IMG/VR virus record: IMGVR_UViG_2675903504_000002
Span: 1-9,930 of that record
Strand: one strand, 5' to 3'
Source of the DNA: a virus
Lineage: Duplodnaviria; Heunggongvirae; Uroviricota; Caudoviricetes
Length of the DNA stretch: 9,930 nt
Below the pieces are notes generated by a model. That model had not been told where the DNA came from. It searched no databases and saw nothing but the letters and a program-made list of their open reading frames with translations. This document shows, piece after piece, positions 1-6,500 of this stretch. The position numbers and the translations under genes are program-made. Position 1 is the stretch's first letter, and each line of letters begins with the position of its first letter.

Positions 1-288
1 TCGGGCGGACCAAATGATACGTCAGTGGGAGAGATCTCACTAAAAACTGGGGATAACGCCTTAAATGGCGAAGAAACGGTCTAAATAGGCTGATTCAAGG
101 CATTTACGGGAGAAAAAATCGGCTCAAACATGAAGAAATGAAATGACTGAGTCAGCCGAGAAGAATTTCCCCGCTTATTCGCACCTTCCCTAGATGACCA
201 CATTACACATCTAAAAGGTAAACTATGCGATTTCCTTAGCAAGAAGTTTGGCGATAGCATTAGCCTGAGTGTTAATGCATTAGCTTCT

Positions 289-753
289 TTGCTTGAACAG
301 GCGTGTCGAGAAAAATCCAAGGTAAAATCCGCAGATATTATTAATTTTCCTGAACTTATTTCACGAAAGGGTTTCTCATCAGAAGCATTGAATGGTGTGC
401 TTGATTCCTTGAATGCAAGTAATAGTTTAAAGCCTGATTGGGACAAAGCTAGTCCCCTATTCAATGATCTTGGCAAAACATCGCTTCAGCTCATTATCCT
501 GCAAGCCATGTTCTCACAAGTTTGCATCGACCTTAACCAAAACAAAAAAAATCCTTCGACTGTATATCTAGAATATGCAATTAGCCTTTACGATGAGGCG
601 AGTGCTCACTCGGATTTGAAATTATATCTAACTGAAACCATGTACAAAATTGATGCACTTTGTCCAGATTATGCATTGACTTTAAAGTCAGGGAAGAAAG
701 AATGCATAGTTATTTACTCAATAATCCAGAAGCTCTTAGAGGGAGGTGAATAA
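289..753 (+). CDS. Hypothetical small protein (154 aa if TTG start at 289; true start uncertain), translationally coupled to the downstream ATPase
   Basis: Frame is open from 151 to the TAA at 751-753 with no in-frame ATG before 508. Stop overlaps the next gene's ATG (TAATG, 751-755). AT-rich like the ATPase. The antisense ORF 81..476 overlaps and is judged spurious. Confidence 0.5.
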   Translation: MLEQACREKSKVKSADIINFPELISRKGFSSEALNGVLDSLNASNSLKPDWDKASPLFNDLGKTSLQLIILQAMFSQVCIDLNQNKKNPSTVYLEYAISLYDEASAHSDLKLYLTETMYKIDALCPDYALTLKSGKKECIVIYSIIQKLLEGGE

Positions 754-2405
754 TGAAAAGCATATACTTTAAAAGTGCTCATATATTATCCCTTCGCGAT
801 AAGAAAGGATTCTCCTTCAAGTTCTCACCTGATATTAATATCATTACAGGTGAGAACGACACAGGTAAGTCTAGCTTTATTAAGAGCTTATATCATACAT
901 TAGGTGCTGATGTTCGACTGGATAAAAAGTGGAAAGAAGATAACTTTGTTTCAAAAGTTGTTATTTGTGTTAATAATCGTGACTATGCGTTTCTTCGCCA
1001 CGAAAAACGTATTTCCATTTTCGATATAACAGCAGGACAAGAGCATCACTTAGTGACCTCTAGCTCTCGTGCAGAGATTGCATTAGCTGTGCGTGATGTC
1101 TTTGATTTCAATTTGGAGCTTGTGACTAAAACTAATTTGGTTCAGGGACAAGCACAACCAGCAAGTCTTTATCTCCCTTACTATATTGATCAAGATAACG
1201 GTTGGGGGAAAGTTTTAGATTCATTTAGCAGTTTGGCTATGTATGAGGACTGGCAAAAAAATATCTTGAATTTTCATACTGGTGTAAAACCAAAGGAGTA
1301 CTATACTTTACAAGGAAAGATTAATTTAATTGATTTCGATCTTGTTGAAATCCGAACGACGTTAAAAGCTCTAAAGAGAGCTAAAAAGCGATTCGAAGAG
1401 TCATTTGGAAGAGTACTTTTCGATGTGGATGTAAAATATTATGAAGAGCTGCTGGAACGTTTCCTTCGTAAGTGCCAAGACTTACATCAAGAAGAAACAG
1501 AATACAGAATTAAGCTCATAAAAATATTATCTCTACGAGATGAATTAGTAACAGAAATAGAGGAATCAAAAAGACAGCTCGATGAAAATGATATAGATTC
1601 TTTGCTACCATCGGCAGGCTTAGAAGCAAGATATGTAGTACTTGAGAATAAAGAAAAGCTATTGCAAATCATACCAAAGTTGTATGAGGAAAAATCTGTA
1701 TATGATGATCAACTCTCTAAAATTAAAGAAGATTTGAAACAGGCTATAAGCTTAAGCTCAGAACTCAAAAACATGCTTCTGGAAGTCAAAGAGCAACTGA
1801 CTCTTCAAGACGTTATTAAGTCTCAAGCAAGTAAGCAGGTTGAGGTAACTTTCGATGAGCAAATTAACGAATTACTGCTAAAAATAGGCGAATTGGATGT
1901 TTCTAGAACTCAGCTTTCAAAAGAAATAGCAAAGTTCGAAGATAAAAAGCGAGCAAAAGAAATCAATGATAAGTTTAAAGAGTCACTGAAGTTTGCGCAA
2001 ACTGAGTTAGGTATCAAAGATCCTAAAGTTGGAACTATTCTTCAATATGGTCCGATTTCTAAGAGCGAAACAGGCAGCCGTGCTCCAAGATCAATCCTGG
2101 CTTATCACTATGCTCTTCTAAAAACAATAGAAGATAAATCGACAAGTCCTATGCTTCCAGTAGTAATTGACTCGCCTAAACAACAAGATCCAGATCCGCG
2201 TACAACAAAAAAGTTATTCGATTTATGTATTAATGGTTTATCAACTAATAGCCAGCTAATTATCGGCTCAGTTTCATTTGAAAGAGAAACGAATCAGTTT
2301 AAAACACTTATTATGACTGAAAAATACAGTCTGCTAAAATCAGAGCTTTACAATCAGGTTTATCAAGAGATTATGCCTCTTTATGAACGAGCTGCGTTAT
2401 CATAA
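753..2405 (+). CDS. SMC/Rad50-like (ABC-type) ATPase with long central coiled coil, 550 aa; candidate defence ATPase of unassigned family
   Basis: SD GGAGG at 742-746, 6 nt before ATG 753. Walker A GENDTGKS at 849-872. Residues ~190-430 are K/E/L/Q-rich and heptad-like. C-terminal signature-like SETGS (2064-2078) and Walker-B-like LPVVIDSP (2154-2177). Confidence 0.8.
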   Translation: MKSIYFKSAHILSLRDKKGFSFKFSPDINIITGENDTGKSSFIKSLYHTLGADVRLDKKWKEDNFVSKVVICVNNRDYAFLRHEKRISIFDITAGQEHHLVTSSSRAEIALAVRDVFDFNLELVTKTNLVQGQAQPASLYLPYYIDQDNGWGKVLDSFSSLAMYEDWQKNILNFHTGVKPKEYYTLQGKINLIDFDLVEIRTTLKALKRAKKRFEESFGRVLFDVDVKYYEELLERFLRKCQDLHQEETEYRIKLIKILSLRDELVTEIEESKRQLDENDIDSLLPSAGLEARYVVLENKEKLLQIIPKLYEEKSVYDDQLSKIKEDLKQAISLSSELKNMLLEVKEQLTLQDVIKSQASKQVEVTFDEQINELLLKIGELDVSRTQLSKEIAKFEDKKRAKEINDKFKESLKFAQTELGIKDPKVGTILQYGPISKSETGSRAPRSILAYHYALLKTIEDKSTSPMLPVVIDSPKQQDPDPRTTKKLFDLCINGLSTNSQLIIGSVSFERETNQFKTLIMTEKYSLLKSELYNQVYQEIMPLYERAALS

Positions 2406-2435
2406 TCTGATCATTTATATGGGAACACGCTCATC

Positions 2436-2459
2436 ACTATGAGTGTGTCTCCTCATAGT
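2436..2459. other. Perfect 8-bp stem hairpin (ACTATGAG / CTCATAGT, 8-nt loop) 31 nt after the ATPase stop
   Basis: Exact inverted repeat read from the sequence. Lacks a following T-run, so not a canonical intrinsic terminator. Confidence 0.4.
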
Positions 2460-2537
2460 TACGCTAGCTATCAATTAAATTAGCCTATTCAATTGACCAG
2501 CTCTTCATTGATCAACAATAAGTGCTATTAGCTACTT

Positions 2538-2597
2538 CAGCTTTCGGCACAGAGCGGACGAGATGGCTGGTTTGAAGGTCCGCTGTGAGCGAAGAGC
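2538..2597. other. Two adjacent stem-loops in the convergent intergenic region
   Basis: CACAG(AG)CGGAC ... GTCCGCTGTG (10 bp with a 2-nt bulge, 18-nt loop), then GCGAAG-AGCGGAA-CTTCGC (6-bp stem). No adjacent U-tract on either strand. Confidence 0.4.
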
Positions 2598-2706: not shown

Positions 2707-3258
2707 CTACAAGTCTGACATTAGAGCCAAACACATAATCCGTTCCCAGTGATTCACAAAAGGCGAATTATTGATTATTGTTTGAAATATAAGGTATTTA
2801 GCAGCATTTTTATCTACGGAGATTGGTAGTACTGAGTTATATAGAGCTAAAAGCACAACTAACCTCGCACCAGCTTCTTTAGAGTATCTTAAAGATAAAT
2901 CAAAATCGTTAAAATGTTTTTCCACTCTTTGTTTATGTGCATTATCCCAATCAGCAGGTGGCGAAACAAAATACTCAATAACTCCAGGCTCATCATTTTT
3001 GCCAACCAAGTATCTAGCCGATATCCACTGTTCATCATAATAACGGCTATCGTCTAAATAGGGATGTATTATCTGTTCTGCTTCATTTCTTGCAAAAGTT
3101 TCCCCTTTACCATCCATATTACAATCTCGACAAGCTGGCACAAGATTAACAGGCAATATAGAAAACTGAGGATAGTGAGCTTTAGGCAAATAATGATCTA
3201 AATTTCGAGGTCGCCCAATCCCACCACAAAATGGGCATTTTTCATTAGCAGCAGTCAT
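2707..3258 (-). CDS. HNH-family endonuclease, 183 aa
   Basis: N-terminal CPFCG...LDHYLPK...N...CRDCN pattern (about 3115..3237 on +), i.e. two CxxC pairs flanking a DH dyad as in McrA/HNH nucleases. AT-rich. No strong SD upstream of ATG 3258. Confidence 0.8.
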   Translation of the reverse strand: MTAANEKCPFCGGIGRPRNLDHYLPKAHYPQFSILPVNLVPACRDCNMDGKGETFARNEAEQIIHPYLDDSRYYDEQWISARYLVGKNDEPGVIEYFVSPPADWDNAHKQRVEKHFNDFDLSLRYSKEAGARLVVLLALYNSVLPISVDKNAAKYLIFQTIINNSPFVNHWERIMCLALMSDL

Positions 3259-3333
3259 CAGGGCATCATAAATATTTCGAGCAGGCTTTTTCTTCCCAAC
3301 AACATAATTTCCATTTATGTAAACTGATTAATG

Positions 3334-4511: not shown

Positions 4512-6500
4512 TTAAAAAACATTCTTATCCCCGTGGAAAAAACGTGCAACGTTCAATAGCCAGTCGGGGGTTTTTATTTCATTTGAATTTGCTAGTATTT
4601 CTAAATATTTTTCGCAAAATTCATTTTTTTTTCCTGGTAATTCGAAATAATCCTCAATAGCTTTTTTTTCTGTAATGTTAAGATTCAAAGCGCCTCCCGA
4701 TACTGAAGACTCCATTAACTGTGGGGTTTCCATAAAGGACAAACTAGTTTCTCCTTTAGTGTAAAGCATTTTCAGAGTTTCTACGTAGAAATCAGCATTA
4801 AGAGACTGCTCAATTTCTGTAGGTGGATAAACTCGATCATCAGTAACTTTAACAAGGCTTATATTAGATAAGTCTTTATCGAGCAAGAGTCTTCTTATTT
4901 TTATACTTGGTATTGTATCTGTAGCATCATATGGACTATATTTGTGATCTGTATCTAATAATAATAATACTTTTCCTGAGATTGTTGCTTTGCGATCCTC
5001 TAACGCCATAACGAGTAAATTATATATTTTTTTTACTGTAGGGGAGCCACCGACGGATAAAACTATTAGTTTCTCAATGTTTTCATAATCCAAGTGAGCG
5101 GAAATATATTTTCTATCAGTTTTTCCTTCGCACAATATCCAGTTATAATTATTTCCAGATGTTATTGAATAAACAATTGATTGTGCTAAGTCGTGATTGC
5201 TTTTCATTTCTAAAACGTCAAGGTAAGAGCCATTTGACTCTTTTGCTAGTTCCTTTAATTCATCCTTGTAGTTTTCCAGATCGAGTGCTTTGATGTATGT
5301 TTGAGAGGGGGAAATATATATGGCTGTACCTGAGCCTGTAACAGGTAAAAAACCATACCAATGAGTTGTACAAATAGTTTGTATGCCTAGGTCGCTAATT
5401 TTTTTTATTTTATCAAATTGATTAAAACATGATGTGGCATGTAAGGATAATTCAGGTTCATCAACAGCAAGAATTGTTGAGTGCTGAGATTTTTGTGGAT
5501 TATGTTTTAAGAAATTGGTAGCAAGATCTAGCAATGCTTTTCTTTTTTCTCCTGAGCTTAAATTTTGCACAGGGGTATCTTTATTAACATCATCAATATG
5601 ATGTAATATTTTATCACTAAAATATGATTCAATTATTTTAGATATCATATGACGTTGAGTGAAACTATTTTGTCGCTGAGATGGTTTTTTAAATTGATAT
5701 CGCCCCTCAAGCTTTGTAGTTAATTGTCTAATAAAATCATTTAAGTGCGAATTTATTGCTGTAATATCCTTTTTCTTAATGATTTTACTGATTTTTTGTT
5801 GGAGATTTTCACCTAATAAAGACTGTAATAAATCGCTTTCAATCCTTGAGTATTCGGATGTGGTTATTTCTGCAGGTAGGTAAATATAATTATAGATATC
5901 CTTAATTGTTATTAATAGCTTAGGTAGTATATTGTTAAAATGATATTTTTTATTATTCGTCGAACTATTTTCATTTGCGAGATCATCAATTTGCAATCGA
6001 TAATCATCTATAGATTCGAAAATTGACATGTAGGGGCGAGGAATATCATTTGCAGTTTCTTTTATTATCCCAAGGGGAATTAATAAATATTCATCTGAAG
6101 AATATTTGTATTCTAGTTGCTTCCTGTGTGATATAAATTTCTCAGCTATAGGACGTTGCAATGTATTAAAAACTTCACTTTCTATTTGCCAAGTGATATC
6201 GCTTACGATTTCTAATGCTTTGTATAGGGAATTATTTATCTTTAGCTTGTTTTTATTTATTAAATAAATTGGCACAATGAATGGTTCTCGAGTATCGAAA
6301 CCTTGACTGCGCGCTTCATTGTTGATATCAAGTCTATTGATATCAGTTTTATTTAGTACAATATCTAATGCTTGTAATATTGAGCTTTTCCCGACACCAT
6401 TTTCACCAATGAGCCAAGAGGATTTATTGTTTAAAGTGAGAGGGATATAATGTTGATTTTTGAAATTCTTGAAATTTCGTAAAATAACACCAATAATCAT
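4512..6500 (-). CDS. OLD-family ATPase-TOPRIM nuclease (class-1 OLD-like single-gene architecture; a fused PARIS AriA-AriB-like protein is an alternative), 662 aa
   Basis: N-terminal ABC/AAA_15-type Walker A LIGENGVGKSS (6384..6407). C-terminal TOPRIM motifs ILCEGKTD (5115..5138) and LLLLDTDH (DxD at 4947..4955). SD AAGGA 5-6 nt upstream of ATG 6500, 20 bp after the cI stop. Very AT-rich (about 28% G+C in a hand-counted 60-nt sample). Confidence 0.85.
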   Translation of the reverse strand: MIIGVILRNFKNFKNQHYIPLTLNNKSSWLIGENGVGKSSILQALDIVLNKTDINRLDINNEARSQGFDTREPFIVPIYLINKNKLKINNSLYKALEIVSDITWQIESEVFNTLQRPIAEKFISHRKQLEYKYSSDEYLLIPLGIIKETANDIPRPYMSIFESIDDYRLQIDDLANENSSTNNKKYHFNNILPKLLITIKDIYNYIYLPAEITTSEYSRIESDLLQSLLGENLQQKISKIIKKKDITAINSHLNDFIRQLTTKLEGRYQFKKPSQRQNSFTQRHMISKIIESYFSDKILHHIDDVNKDTPVQNLSSGEKRKALLDLATNFLKHNPQKSQHSTILAVDEPELSLHATSCFNQFDKIKKISDLGIQTICTTHWYGFLPVTGSGTAIYISPSQTYIKALDLENYKDELKELAKESNGSYLDVLEMKSNHDLAQSIVYSITSGNNYNWILCEGKTDRKYISAHLDYENIEKLIVLSVGGSPTVKKIYNLLVMALEDRKATISGKVLLLLDTDHKYSPYDATDTIPSIKIRRLLLDKDLSNISLVKVTDDRVYPPTEIEQSLNADFYVETLKMLYTKGETSLSFMETPQLMESSVSGGALNLNITEKKAIEDYFELPGKKNEFCEKYLEILANSNEIKTPDWLLNVARFFHGDKNVF

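Follow-up and report, generated by a model that had tools for sequence, protein, structure and literature searches.

The closest solved structure to the protein examined here is that of BcLmuB from Bacillus cellulasensis NIO-1130 (PDB 9ux7/9ux8; bioRxiv 2025.06.23.660979), which belongs to a two-gene Lamassu system composed of a Cap4-type LmuA and LmuB, without LmuC. The BcLmuAB complex is reported to hydrolyze ATP, an activity that is lost in the Walker A mutant K37A, and defends against phage T1 (bioRxiv 2025.06.23.660979). A second group, the type II LmuB proteins, is represented by DdmC/VcLmuB of V. cholerae and by SalEnt LmuB (PDB 9uxh, 9nyg, 9ny5, 9hqu; PMC12663957; bioRxiv 2025.03.14.643221); these form Rad50-like dimers that sequester a Cap4 LmuA and sense DNA ends, combine a deviant Walker B with a slow ATPase, and lose defense when the Walker A or the signature is mutated. 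In the presence of DNA, SalEnt LmuACB turns over about 1 ATP per minute, and defense is lost in its signature mutant S536R (bioRxiv 2025.03.14.643221). In short Lamassu the Walker B follows hhhhD[Q/S/T/E], from which slow hydrolysis has been inferred, the number of CxxC hook copies varies (zero, one, or two), and hook-less short LmuB clades have been reported; the same source relays the proposal that Rad50/SbcC was the evolutionary source of Lamassu (PMC12663957). For relatives of the system studied here, the dependence of defense on the Walker A lysine and on LmuA catalysis is known.

The deviant ATPase site of LmuB and its slow hydrolysis are thus already known from reviews and structure papers of 2023–2025, among which three papers of 2025 cover both the Walker B deviation and the slow turnover. 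The published accounts conflict in two respects: the rate is given either as moderate or as about 1 per minute, and the requirement for defense is placed either in hydrolysis or in ATP binding with head engagement. Rad50/SbcC, the ATPase of the Mre11-Rad50 and SbcCD complexes, shares with LmuB an ABC head interrupted by an antiparallel coiled coil, and likewise recognizes DNA ends; unlike LmuB, it carries a canonical LSGGE, hhhhDE, and H-loop His (SLFLDEGF...IGVISH in E. coli SbcC), has much longer coiled coils and a stably bound nuclease, and runs a hydrolysis-driven cycle.

The present study concerns a protein encoded at positions 753 to 2,405 of the window, by which we mean the whole 9,930-nucleotide stretch of DNA that was analyzed, and for which an initial annotation had described ABC ATPase motifs that looked degenerate. 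Taking all lines of evidence jointly, we consider it very probable that this protein is the LmuB of a type I Lamassu system, that its ATP site is non-canonical by design, that it works as a slow switch, and that the locus in which it lies is most likely dead for defense.

Identity and architecture of the protein

The open reading frame at 753..2405(+) encodes LmuB, a Rad50/SbcC-like ATPase that serves as the sensor in a Lamassu abortive-infection system of type I ('clade S'), which comprises two genes (Table 1). The PADLOC LmuB profile PDLC00255 matched it with 1013 bits over positions 1–549 of 550, and 14 more PADLOC LmuB models matched it as well. When the protein alone was searched against the PDB by single-sequence phmmer, nothing significant was returned; a profile of its homologues was needed for a match, which was then obtained with 9ux7_A, 'Lamassu protein LmuB' (E = 1.3e-25, residues 9–536). 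In the AF2 model (pLDDT 80.8), long helices spanning residues 181–418 separate two head lobes, and the model together with the Foldseek matches places the protein in the Rad50/SMC-like fold, with N- and C-terminal ABC half-heads and an antiparallel coiled coil. Foldseek ranked 9ux7_A first (3.5e-23), followed by type II LmuACB and then by Rad50 and SMC heads, with Rad50/SbcC matches at 1e-10 to 1e-7. The subfamily is one that PADLOC already models.

Table 1. Features in the window; nucleotide positions count from the first letter of the window, and residue numbers are those of the window LmuB
Feature	Position	Strand	Basis or description
IS5 right end: 3' end of the transposase gene and terminal inverted repeat, adjoining the CTAG target	1..188	+	megablast
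lmuA remnant, codons 174-361 of the 361-aa LmuA	189..753	+	PADLOC LmuA PDLC00243
lmuB, intact, 550 aa	753..2405	+	Rad50/SMC-like ABC ATPase with coiled coil; sensor subunit, type I Lamassu
Walker A / P-loop GENDTGKS (G33, G38, K39, S40)	849..872 (aa 33-40)	+	canonical GxxxxGK[ST]
Q-loop YIDQD (Q147), end of strand 144-146	1182..1196	+	conservation; strand from AF2 model
Signature-like TGSRAPR (G441, S442, P445, R446), entering helix 445-462	2070..2090	+	position, conservation
Walker B PVVID-S, D473 then Ser474 where the catalytic Glu is expected	2157..2174	+	strand 470-473 (AF2)
D-loop PKQQDPD (Q477, Q478, D479 at nt 2187-2189, D481)	2175..2195	+	conservation
Switch (H-loop) strand QLIIGSV plus SFE; V507 at Q+6, then E510	2253..2282	+	strand 502-506 (AF2)
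OLD-like ATPase-TOPRIM protein	4512..6500	-	ABC-type ATPase, defense or prophage context

The likeness to BcLmuB extends from the two-gene LmuA(Cap4)-LmuB arrangement without LmuC (562 aa in BcLmuB versus 550 aa here) to the fold, in which a coiled coil lies between two head parts, and to the ATP site itself, in which both proteins have a Walker B D-S, an acidic residue at D-loop +6 (E495 in BcLmuB), and Val at the H-loop (V523) with no His. The two differ in that identity over the Foldseek alignment is about 18%, the D-loop of BcLmuB reads DSFIKNE, without the QQ pair of DSPKQQD, and its signature region reads SGSGMDKNKK against TGSRAPR; the H-loop region of BcLmuB is NQSFFSIVSEN, with E525 as the equivalent of E510 of the window LmuB. 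BcLmuB also carries a CQYC zinc hook, whereas the window LmuB has no CxxC, its only cysteines being residues 72, 241, and 492, even though a CxxC hook is present in 142 of the 148 relatives among the aligned best matches. Given the absent hook and the low identity to BcLmuB, dimerization and mechanism of the window LmuB may differ in detail. With type II LmuB, Rad50-like dimerization, sequestration of a Cap4 LmuA, and DNA-end sensing would be shared by homology; the fold matches (7.7e-16), while sequence similarity is detectable at the P-loop only, and type II proteins differ in length (about 650 aa), in needing LmuC, and in having D-Q instead of D-S at the Walker B, where long LmuB has D-D.

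Conservation of the ATP-site motifs

Conservation was assessed in an alignment of 149 sequences (148 representatives plus the query, 24–54% identical to the query), for which relatives were taken from the best 150 of about 560 representatives with E ≤ 1e-30; the counts that follow refer to these aligned best matches. The Walker A residues G38 and K39 are each present in 148 of 149 sequences, as are D146 and Q147 of the Q-loop, with D148 present in 144. At the C-terminal side, G441 and R446 of the signature-like element occur in all 149, S442 in 147, and P445 in 141. By its position ahead of the signature helix, the [TS]-G-S-x-x-P-R element is a candidate counterpart of the ABC LSGGQ. The initial annotation had singled out SETGS (aa 438–442, nt 2064–2078) as signature-like, which was right as to location and a few residues off as to extent: the conserved core is T440-G441-S442-R443-x-P445-R446 (nt 2070–2090).

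The Walker B lies in LPVVIDSP (aa 468–475, nt 2154–2177). D473 is invariant (149/149) and is followed at residue 474 by S in 120 sequences, A in 13, T in 10, E in 5, and N in 1. In the D-loop, Q477 is found in 148 of the 149 aligned best matches, Q478 in 141, and D481 in 142, and residue 479 is D in 78, E in 35, A in 20, and G in 14. The segment QLIIGSVSF (aa 501–509, nt 2253–2279) begins with Q501, which is also invariant (149/149); residue 507 is V in 98 sequences, E in 33, and never His. The observations that the Walker B Asp is followed by Ser-Pro with no Glu (D473-S474 in PVVID-S-P), and that QLIIGSV (501–507, with V507 at Q+6) holds no His, therefore stand with the coordinates and residues first given for them. 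GENDTGKS and VVID-S agree with both the Walker A pattern Gx4GK[S/T] and the Walker B pattern hhhhD[Q/S/T/E].

The clade has thus kept the Walker A, the Q-loop, a signature-like [TS]GSxxPR element, the Asp of the Walker B, and a D-loop of the form DSPxQQ[DE]xD, and nearly all its members are without the Glu of the Walker B and the His of the H-loop. The motifs of the window LmuB are identical in 30 homologues down to 38% identity. Across the family, DSPxQQ[DE]xD and the other parts of the site show little or no variation. This indicates selection rather than decay, and "degenerate," the term first applied to these motifs, is the wrong word for them. The OLD-like ATPase-TOPRIM protein of the same window differs from LmuB in being fully canonical (LSSGE, ILAVDEPE, ICTTH), so the deviations are specific to LmuB and neither genome-wide nor general to ABC defense ATPases.

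Register of the motifs

A misplaced register, with a canonical DE and H-loop lying elsewhere in the C-terminal lobe, has to be weighed. In its favor, profile alignments of the C-lobe to individual C-lobe sequences (SbcC, RecN, and the OLD-like protein of the window; hhalign) had probabilities below 3% and mutually inconsistent registers, and the LmuB profile aligned to full-length E. coli SbcC at the P-loop only (hhalign); these alignments were set aside as evidence in either direction. A C-lobe profile match to the P. furiosus SMC head in the PDB was collinear and not significant (E ~1); the top-ranking PDB match of that profile, a designed helical repeat protein, was judged spurious. Against a misplaced register, a scan of the whole protein found D[DE] at residues 263, 277, 318, and 368 only, all within the coiled coil and none in the C-lobe, and no His after H452, so that the alternative canonical motifs, which the initial annotation had itself named as grounds for setting its view aside, are absent. 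The order of elements in the AF2 model (helix 445–462, strand 470–473 with VVID, helix 482–496, strand 502–506 with LIIGS) is that of a canonical ABC C-lobe, the profile alignment to 9ux7_A pairs D-S with D-S and Q with Q (C-lobe alone, E = 7.8e-6), with the Walker B falling on CMD-S of BcLmuB, and both agree with the published consensus on VVID-S. The motifs are also far from chance, with D473, Q477, G441, R446, and Q501 unchanged in all or almost all of the 149 aligned sequences. We accordingly regard a wrong register as exceedingly unlikely. The profile alignment that had been proposed as a check thus supports the register through BcLmuB, but not through SbcC or RecN, where it was not significant; with respect to canonical ABC proteins, the basis of the register is the topology together with the chain of homology that runs through BcLmuB.

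Probable ATP hydrolysis at a non-canonical site

Lacking the Glu of the Walker B as well as the His of the H-loop, LmuB might be taken for a true pseudo-ATPase that binds ATP, never hydrolyzes it, and serves only as a nucleotide-stabilized scaffold or sensor. E-to-Q mutants of ABC ATPases elsewhere do trap the ATP-bound state (cited in bioRxiv 2025.03.14.643221), a review from 2023 expected hydrolysis to be slight or absent (PMC10586767), and one study suggested that head engagement may suffice for unlocking (bioRxiv 2025.03.14.643221). We nonetheless consider this improbable, because BcLmuAB, which shares the D-S and likewise lacks the His, hydrolyzes ATP in a Walker-A-dependent manner, SalEnt LmuACB has a measurable turnover with DNA (the rate of about one per minute given above), and ATPgammaS cannot substitute for ATP in activation or regulation (PMC12663957; bioRxiv 2025.06.23.660979). 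In the head of P. furiosus SMC, too, the corresponding stretch of the collinear alignment (QFIVITLRD) contains no His, so the superfamily does not strictly require one. The preferred reading remains that of a slow hydrolase at a site that is non-canonical by design; of the two roles first suggested for the protein, the slow, ATP-gated sensor was apt, and the non-hydrolyzing scaffold finds no support given the reported hydrolysis by BcLmuB.

Degenerate sites are familiar from heterodimeric ABC transporters, such as NBD1 of CFTR, in which Ser takes the place of the Walker B Glu, the H-loop His is likewise replaced, and ATP is bound tightly with little hydrolysis, an analogy that underlies the first suggestion of slow or absent hydrolysis; such a site is paired with a second, competent site in the heterodimer. 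LmuB is unlike these in that it is a homodimer with both sites deviant and in that its relatives still turn over ATP.

An acidic-residue swap between the D-loop and the H-loop

Residues 479 and 507 vary in a mutually exclusive way among the aligned best matches, all of them type I LmuB sequences: 113 of the 149 are acidic at 479 only, 30 have Glu at 507 only, and none is acidic at both (Fisher 5.5e-30, uncorrected for phylogeny). Gly occupies 479 in each of the five sequences that carry a Walker B Glu, of which three have E507 and two V507, and a single sequence has neither a Walker B Glu nor an acid at 479 or 507. On NJ and UPGMA trees built with the motif columns left out, at least about 21–22 state changes are needed. 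Either column, 479 or 507, accounts for the whole class entropy (0.77 bits), against 0.25 for the best of the remaining columns; the notion that the two classes are merely two clades was rejected, as no other column exceeds 0.25 of the 0.77 bits. The pattern was repeated among 39 species-representative genome loci, which partly overlap the representative set in origin (29, 10, 0, and 0). E507 is found in about a quarter of the clade.

In ABC transporter nucleotide-binding domains, each ATP site brings together the D-loop of one subunit and the H-loop of its partner. The exclusion, its many state changes, the entropy of the two columns, which argues against a clade signature, and its recurrence in the genome loci would all fit an extension of the main reading in which the catalytic carboxylate has been relocated, to D479 in the D-loop, possibly acting in trans, or to E507 in the H-loop of a minority; BcLmuB, which hydrolyzes ATP, has E495 at the 479-equivalent and V523 at Q+6. 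Other considerations hold us to a tentative view of this extension: residue 508 is often acidic too in the class with acidic 479, which makes "exactly one carboxylate" too simple; what the swap maintains could be a structural contact or a charge at the dimer interface instead of chemistry; and the trees are noisy at 25–45% identity, so that the count of independent switches is uncertain. It is therefore possible, though we would put it at somewhat less than even, that type I LmuB moved its carboxylate without losing it and requires an acid at exactly one of D-loop +6 or the H-loop, and D479 is a candidate for the catalytic residue that the initial annotation had imagined to be supplied elsewhere or in trans.

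The lmuA remnant and its surroundings

Nucleotides 1–188 of the window fall under the annotation 'IS5-like element IS5 family transposase' in E. coli genomes (megablast), and similarity to intact loci begins at nt 189, which places the IS5 junction (nt 188/189) at LmuA codon 174. What follows is a remnant of lmuA that matched PADLOC PDLC00243 (E = 5.5e-71, profile positions 207–360 of 361), has in-frame stops upstream of about nt 150 in its frame, and ends at nt 753, where it overlaps the start of lmuB. In the intact loci of E. coli PSS-13 (NZ_AP027704.1, 3659368-3662105) and Hafnia (H. paralvei ATCC 29927), a 361-aa LmuA with Cap4_nuclease likewise overlaps the lmuB start. Each of the 33 genome loci examined has an ORF directly upstream of lmuB, at a distance of −19 to +74 nt that leaves no LmuC gene, and Cap4_nuclease was found in nine of ten upstream ORFs tested in related lmuB loci.

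In intact LmuA, Cap4_nuclease spans aa 15–217, so the window remnant retains the LmuB-binding C-terminal domain while most of the nuclease is gone, and the 5' half of lmuA was absent from the 8 kb upstream in strain E3. IS5 has thus taken most of the nuclease domain and left an intact LmuB without a working effector, and the Lamassu locus of the window is most likely non-functional for defense. The truncated lmuA and a truncated HNH gene nearby might suggest that the whole locus is a pseudogene remnant of the IS5 insertion and that the ATP motifs of LmuB are decaying along with it. LmuB is full-length, however, and its motifs are identical to those of copies beside an intact lmuA: the Hafnia copy is 99.5% identical at the DNA level, and the window LmuB differs from the intact-lmuA copies by two coiled-coil substitutions only (195 and 384, or 195 and 292). 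Decay of the ATP motifs is effectively refuted, and selection on the site in the wider family is the reading that we retain. The HNH gene stops short at a prophage end, and the P2-like prophage in the window carries its own OLD-like ATPase.

Implications

By homology to the systems characterized so far, an LmuB dimer would bind DNA ends and keep a single LmuA monomer inactive on its coiled coil. Once ATP is bound and the heads engage, slow hydrolysis would follow and LmuA would be freed, to tetramerize and cut DNA indiscriminately. A weak catalytic set would suit a slow timer or a one-way switch and not a motor. At the window locus this switch would have nothing to free, lmuA having been cut by IS5 at codon 174, and the window can be read as a defense island in decay, a small example of defense-island turnover.

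Recognizing the protein as LmuB keeps its site from being mistaken for a novel pseudo-ATPase; the initial annotation had identified neither the Lamassu LmuB family nor the disruption of lmuA. The 479/507 exclusion and the IS5-split lmuA go beyond the published accounts of LmuB that were consulted, and the H-loop and the D-loop are undiscussed in the three LmuB structure papers. One of those papers called for hydrolysis-only mutants that would separate hydrolysis from ATP binding and head engagement in defense, and the exclusion nominates specific residues for such mutants of LmuB. If the carboxylate has indeed been relocated, the site would be that of a hydrolase that has been rewired, not crippled, and D479 (or E507) would offer a hydrolysis-specific handle in Lamassu, where the usual E-to-Q mutant is unavailable.

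Identity and genomic context of the LmuB homologue

The intact 550-aa ORF encodes LmuB of a type I Lamassu system, a known kind of protein for which a deviant Walker B motif has been described previously; this identity and the architecture of the system were shown directly by the analysis, as were the content and conservation of the motifs. The PADLOC LmuB model matched the ORF end to end (1013 bits, positions 1-549 of 550), more than 12 further PADLOC LmuB models also matched, and the Pfam matches (AAA_15 and SMC_N) were weak and covered only the P-loop. A profile of 31 LmuB homologues with 38-91% identity (A1) matched PDB entry 9ux7_A, "Lamassu protein LmuB", over residues 9-536 (E = 1.3e-25), 9ux7 being the type I LmuAB complex of Bacillus cellulasensis (bioRxiv 2025.06.23.660979). 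The AlphaFold2 model of the window LmuB has a Rad50-like layout (mean pLDDT 80.8), and a Foldseek search with it ranked 9ux7_A first (3.5e-23), followed by type II LmuACB and then by the heads of Rad50, SMC, MukB, and JetC.

Features of the window and of its LmuB (positions in nucleotides; residues of the 550-aa LmuB)
Feature	Position	Residues	Strand	Remark
IS5 right end	1-188			abuts lmuA at nt 189
lmuA C-terminal part, upstream ORF	289..753		+	LmuA profile, E = 5.5e-71, positions 207-360 of 361
lmuB, 550-aa ORF, intact	753..2405		+	PADLOC LmuB PDLC00255
Walker A GENDTGKS		33-40	+	LmuB
SETGS, signature-like	2064-2078	438-442	+	LmuB
Walker B LPVVIDSP	2154-2177	468-475	+	LmuB
D-loop D479	2187-2189	479	+	position of acidic residue in LmuB
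QLIIGSVSF	2253-2279	501-509	+	LmuB
V507	2271-2273	507	+	canonical H-loop position, LmuB
HNH endonuclease gene (PADLOC PDC-M01B), cut, 183-aa ORF	2707-3314		minus	convergent with lmuB
OLD-like ABC ATPase, 662 aa	4512..6500		minus	weak TOPRIM match; between prophage int and cI

The system belongs among the type I ("clade S") short Lamassu systems. In E. coli PSS-13 and Hafnia paralvei, a Cap4-nuclease LmuA lies directly 5' of lmuB with no space for an LmuC gene, the gap between the upstream ORF and lmuB spans only -19 to +74 nt in all 33 other genome loci, again with no space for LmuC, and Cap4_nuclease was found in nine of ten upstream ORFs tested. The lmuA-lmuB cassette of Hafnia paralvei ATCC 29927 (locus L006, 2437-4845) shares 99.5% nucleotide identity with window 189-2597, and the similarity between H. 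paralvei and E. coli stops ~190 nt 3' of lmuB, which together point to a horizontal transfer that was recent and involved just the two-gene module.

The window DNA comes from E. coli, and its similarity to intact lmuA loci starts at nt 189, equivalent to LmuA codon 174 and thus within the Cap4_nuclease domain (aa 15-217); the lmuA reading frame has in-frame stops 5' of about nt 150. Given an IS5 junction inside this domain, only the LmuA C-terminal domain is left (window 189-753), and the window LmuB is therefore intact but without a nuclease to control. E. coli strain E3 has the identical junction, and the 5' half of lmuA was not found in the 8 kb upstream in that strain.

Beyond lmuB, the HNH gene is cut at nt 3314 (junction ~3311-3315), where the end of a P2-like prophage begins that is ~95.5% identical to Escherichia phage vB_EcoM-813R9 and Klebsiella phage 4LV2017. 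In other strains the HNH gene encodes 285 aa and is partnered with a 505-aa AAA ATPase, which is missing from the window. None of 5426 complete E. coli genomes spans the HNH/prophage junction, which reflects either an assembly join or a rare event of integration or deletion. The AriA, Old, and GajA models were the best PADLOC matches of the OLD-like ATPase gene, which is probably a defence gene that the prophage carries in an int-cI hotspot.

Register of the ATP-site motifs

The initial annotation had noted a Walker B aspartate followed by Ser-Pro and no H-loop histidine. Both observations are confirmed, with S474 following D473 and V507 standing at Q+6, and the segments from which they were read (SETGS, LPVVIDSP, and QLIIGSVSF) were all located in the ORF, exact in residues and position. 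A canonical D-E pair and H-loop elsewhere in the C-lobe would have refuted the reading of the initial annotation; across the whole LmuB, D[DE] occurs only at residues 263, 277, 318, and 368, all within the coiled coil, and no histidine was found beyond H452, so the C-lobe holds neither. The AlphaFold2 C-lobe proceeds from the signature loop through helix 445-462, strand 470-473 (VVID), a loop, helix 482-496, and strand 502-506 (LIIGS) to a further loop, and this modelled order is the canonical ABC one of signature helix, Walker B strand, D-loop, helix, and strand into the H-loop. Whole-protein HMM alignment to the B. cellulasensis protein (BcLmuB) placed PVVID-S opposite PFCMD-S and NSQLIIGSVS opposite TNQSFFSIVS, and a C-lobe-only profile (A3) gave the identical pairing of both motifs (E = 7.8e-6). 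The register is thus upheld by the C-lobe search, the model topology, and the BcLmuB alignment. Alignment of A3 to the P. furiosus SMC head was collinear but not significant (E ~ 1), with the D-loop Asp and the strand-initial Gln coinciding; that head reads QFIVITLRD at this strand, without a histidine. Profile-to-sequence comparisons of LmuB gave no information on register when run against E. coli SbcC, RecN, or the in-window OLD-like ATPase. In contrast to LmuB, the OLD-like ATPase of the same window has fully canonical motifs (GENGVGKS, LSSGE, ILAVDEPE, and ICTTH).

Conservation of the LmuB site

Within A1, the invariant residues are G33, K39, S40, D146-Q147-D148, T440-G441-S442-R443, and P445-R446, together with D473-S474-P475-K476-Q477-Q478-D479, D481, Q501, and G505 in the C-lobe. 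A whole-library HMM search yielded 1444 representatives at E <= 0.001 (562 at E <= 1e-30), from which the best 148 full-length sequences were aligned with the query (n = 149; sharing 24-54% identity with the query, median 27%). In this alignment of the best 148 plus the query, D473, G441, R446, and Q501 are each present in 149/149, Q477 in 148, D481 in 142, and Q478 in 141; the residue after D473 is Ser in 120, Ala in 13, Thr in 10, Glu in five, and Asn in one; and residue 507 (Q+6, the canonical His position) is Val in 98, Glu in 33, and His in none. About 20% of the clade carries a histidine three residues past 507 in a V[DS]LHG variant (e.g., P0127, P0135, P0142, and P0230), at which point the window LmuB has E510. 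The window protein differs from copies at loci with intact lmuA at just two residues, both in the coiled coil, which along with the motif conservation indicates that selection has kept the deviations as a trait of the family and that they do not reflect decay. The term "degenerate" used earlier is accordingly not borne out for this near-invariant site.

The CxxC zinc hook is absent from the window LmuB subfamily (Cys only at residues 72, 241, and 492 in the window protein), and 142 of the best 148 family representatives carry CxxC at the coiled-coil apex (about aa 279-289 in the window LmuB); clade S without LmuC and hook-less LmuB clades have been reported (PMC12663957). A divergent subgroup from Clostridia MAGs and isolates (loci L033, L035, L038, and L040) has a signature GT replacing the otherwise invariant GS, no QQ pair, and a D-loop reading DSPRAKE or DSPRNME. 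No Pfam domain was found in the L040 upstream ORF, the one tested in this subgroup, and the effector there may differ from that elsewhere.

An acidic residue at position 479 or 507

Gly occupies position 479 in each of the five members whose Walker B is the canonical D-E, and an Asp or Glu stands at this position in most members with D-S. Among the 149 sequences (the best 148 representatives, P0121-P0268, plus the query), 479 is acidic in 113 and 507 is Glu in 33, with no sequence having both (Fisher 5.5e-30, with no correction for phylogeny). Three sequences have neither, namely P0096, with Asn at 479, and two that carry the Walker B Glu. When the motif columns were left out of tree building, at least 21 (UPGMA) or at least 22 (NJ) class changes were implied, the shuffled-label mean being 33. 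Columns 479 and 507 each carry all of the 0.77 bits of class-label entropy and the next best column just 0.25, so the classes are not simply two clades. The same exclusion was seen at 39 loci from species-representative genomes (among L006-L049), where 29 have acidic 479, ten have Glu507, and none has both or neither.

The ATP site in ABC NBD dimers is where one subunit's D-loop meets its partner's H-loop, so either position could place a carboxylate at one spot, in trans or in cis. Judging from these sequence patterns, we tentatively regard the carboxylate at 479 or 507 as a candidate for the catalytic residues that, as one option, the initial annotation suggested to be supplied elsewhere or in trans. 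Against such a relocation, an acidic residue is common at position 508 in both classes, and the swap may keep an interface contact, not chemistry. BcLmuB belongs to the majority class like the window LmuB (E495 at D-loop +6, V523 at Q+6), and it hydrolyses ATP (bioRxiv 2025.06.23.660979).

Implications for Lamassu ATPases

The short-Lamassu Walker B has been given as hhhhD[Q/S/T/E] and termed divergent, with slow hydrolysis inferred (PMC12663957, PNAS 2025), so the original observation is a correct rediscovery of a site already in print. The H-loop, D-loop, and Q-loop of LmuB receive no mention in PMC12663957, bioRxiv 2025.03.14.643221, or bioRxiv 2025.06.23.660979. A 2023 review predicted little or no hydrolysis (PMC10586767). 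The type II SalEnt LmuACB of Salmonella hydrolyses ~1 ATP/min with DNA, K40I and the signature mutant S536R each abolish this activity, and S536R abolishes defence too (bioRxiv 2025.03.14.643221). The proposed slow, ATP-gated sensor agrees with the literature, whereas the non-hydrolysing scaffold suggested alongside it is at odds with the literature, including the SalEnt rate.

Homology suggests how stoichiometry, DNA-end sensing, ATP turnover, and effector release may be arranged in the window system. An LmuB dimer would keep one LmuA monomer inactive on its coiled coil via the LmuA C-terminal domain, and the LmuB head would bind a DNA end; once ATP had bound and the heads had engaged, slow hydrolysis would follow and LmuA would be freed, tetramerise into the active Cap4 nuclease, and kill the infected cell. 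The residual interest of the finding lies in the acid swap between D-loop and H-loop, which could supply hydrolysis-specific mutants.
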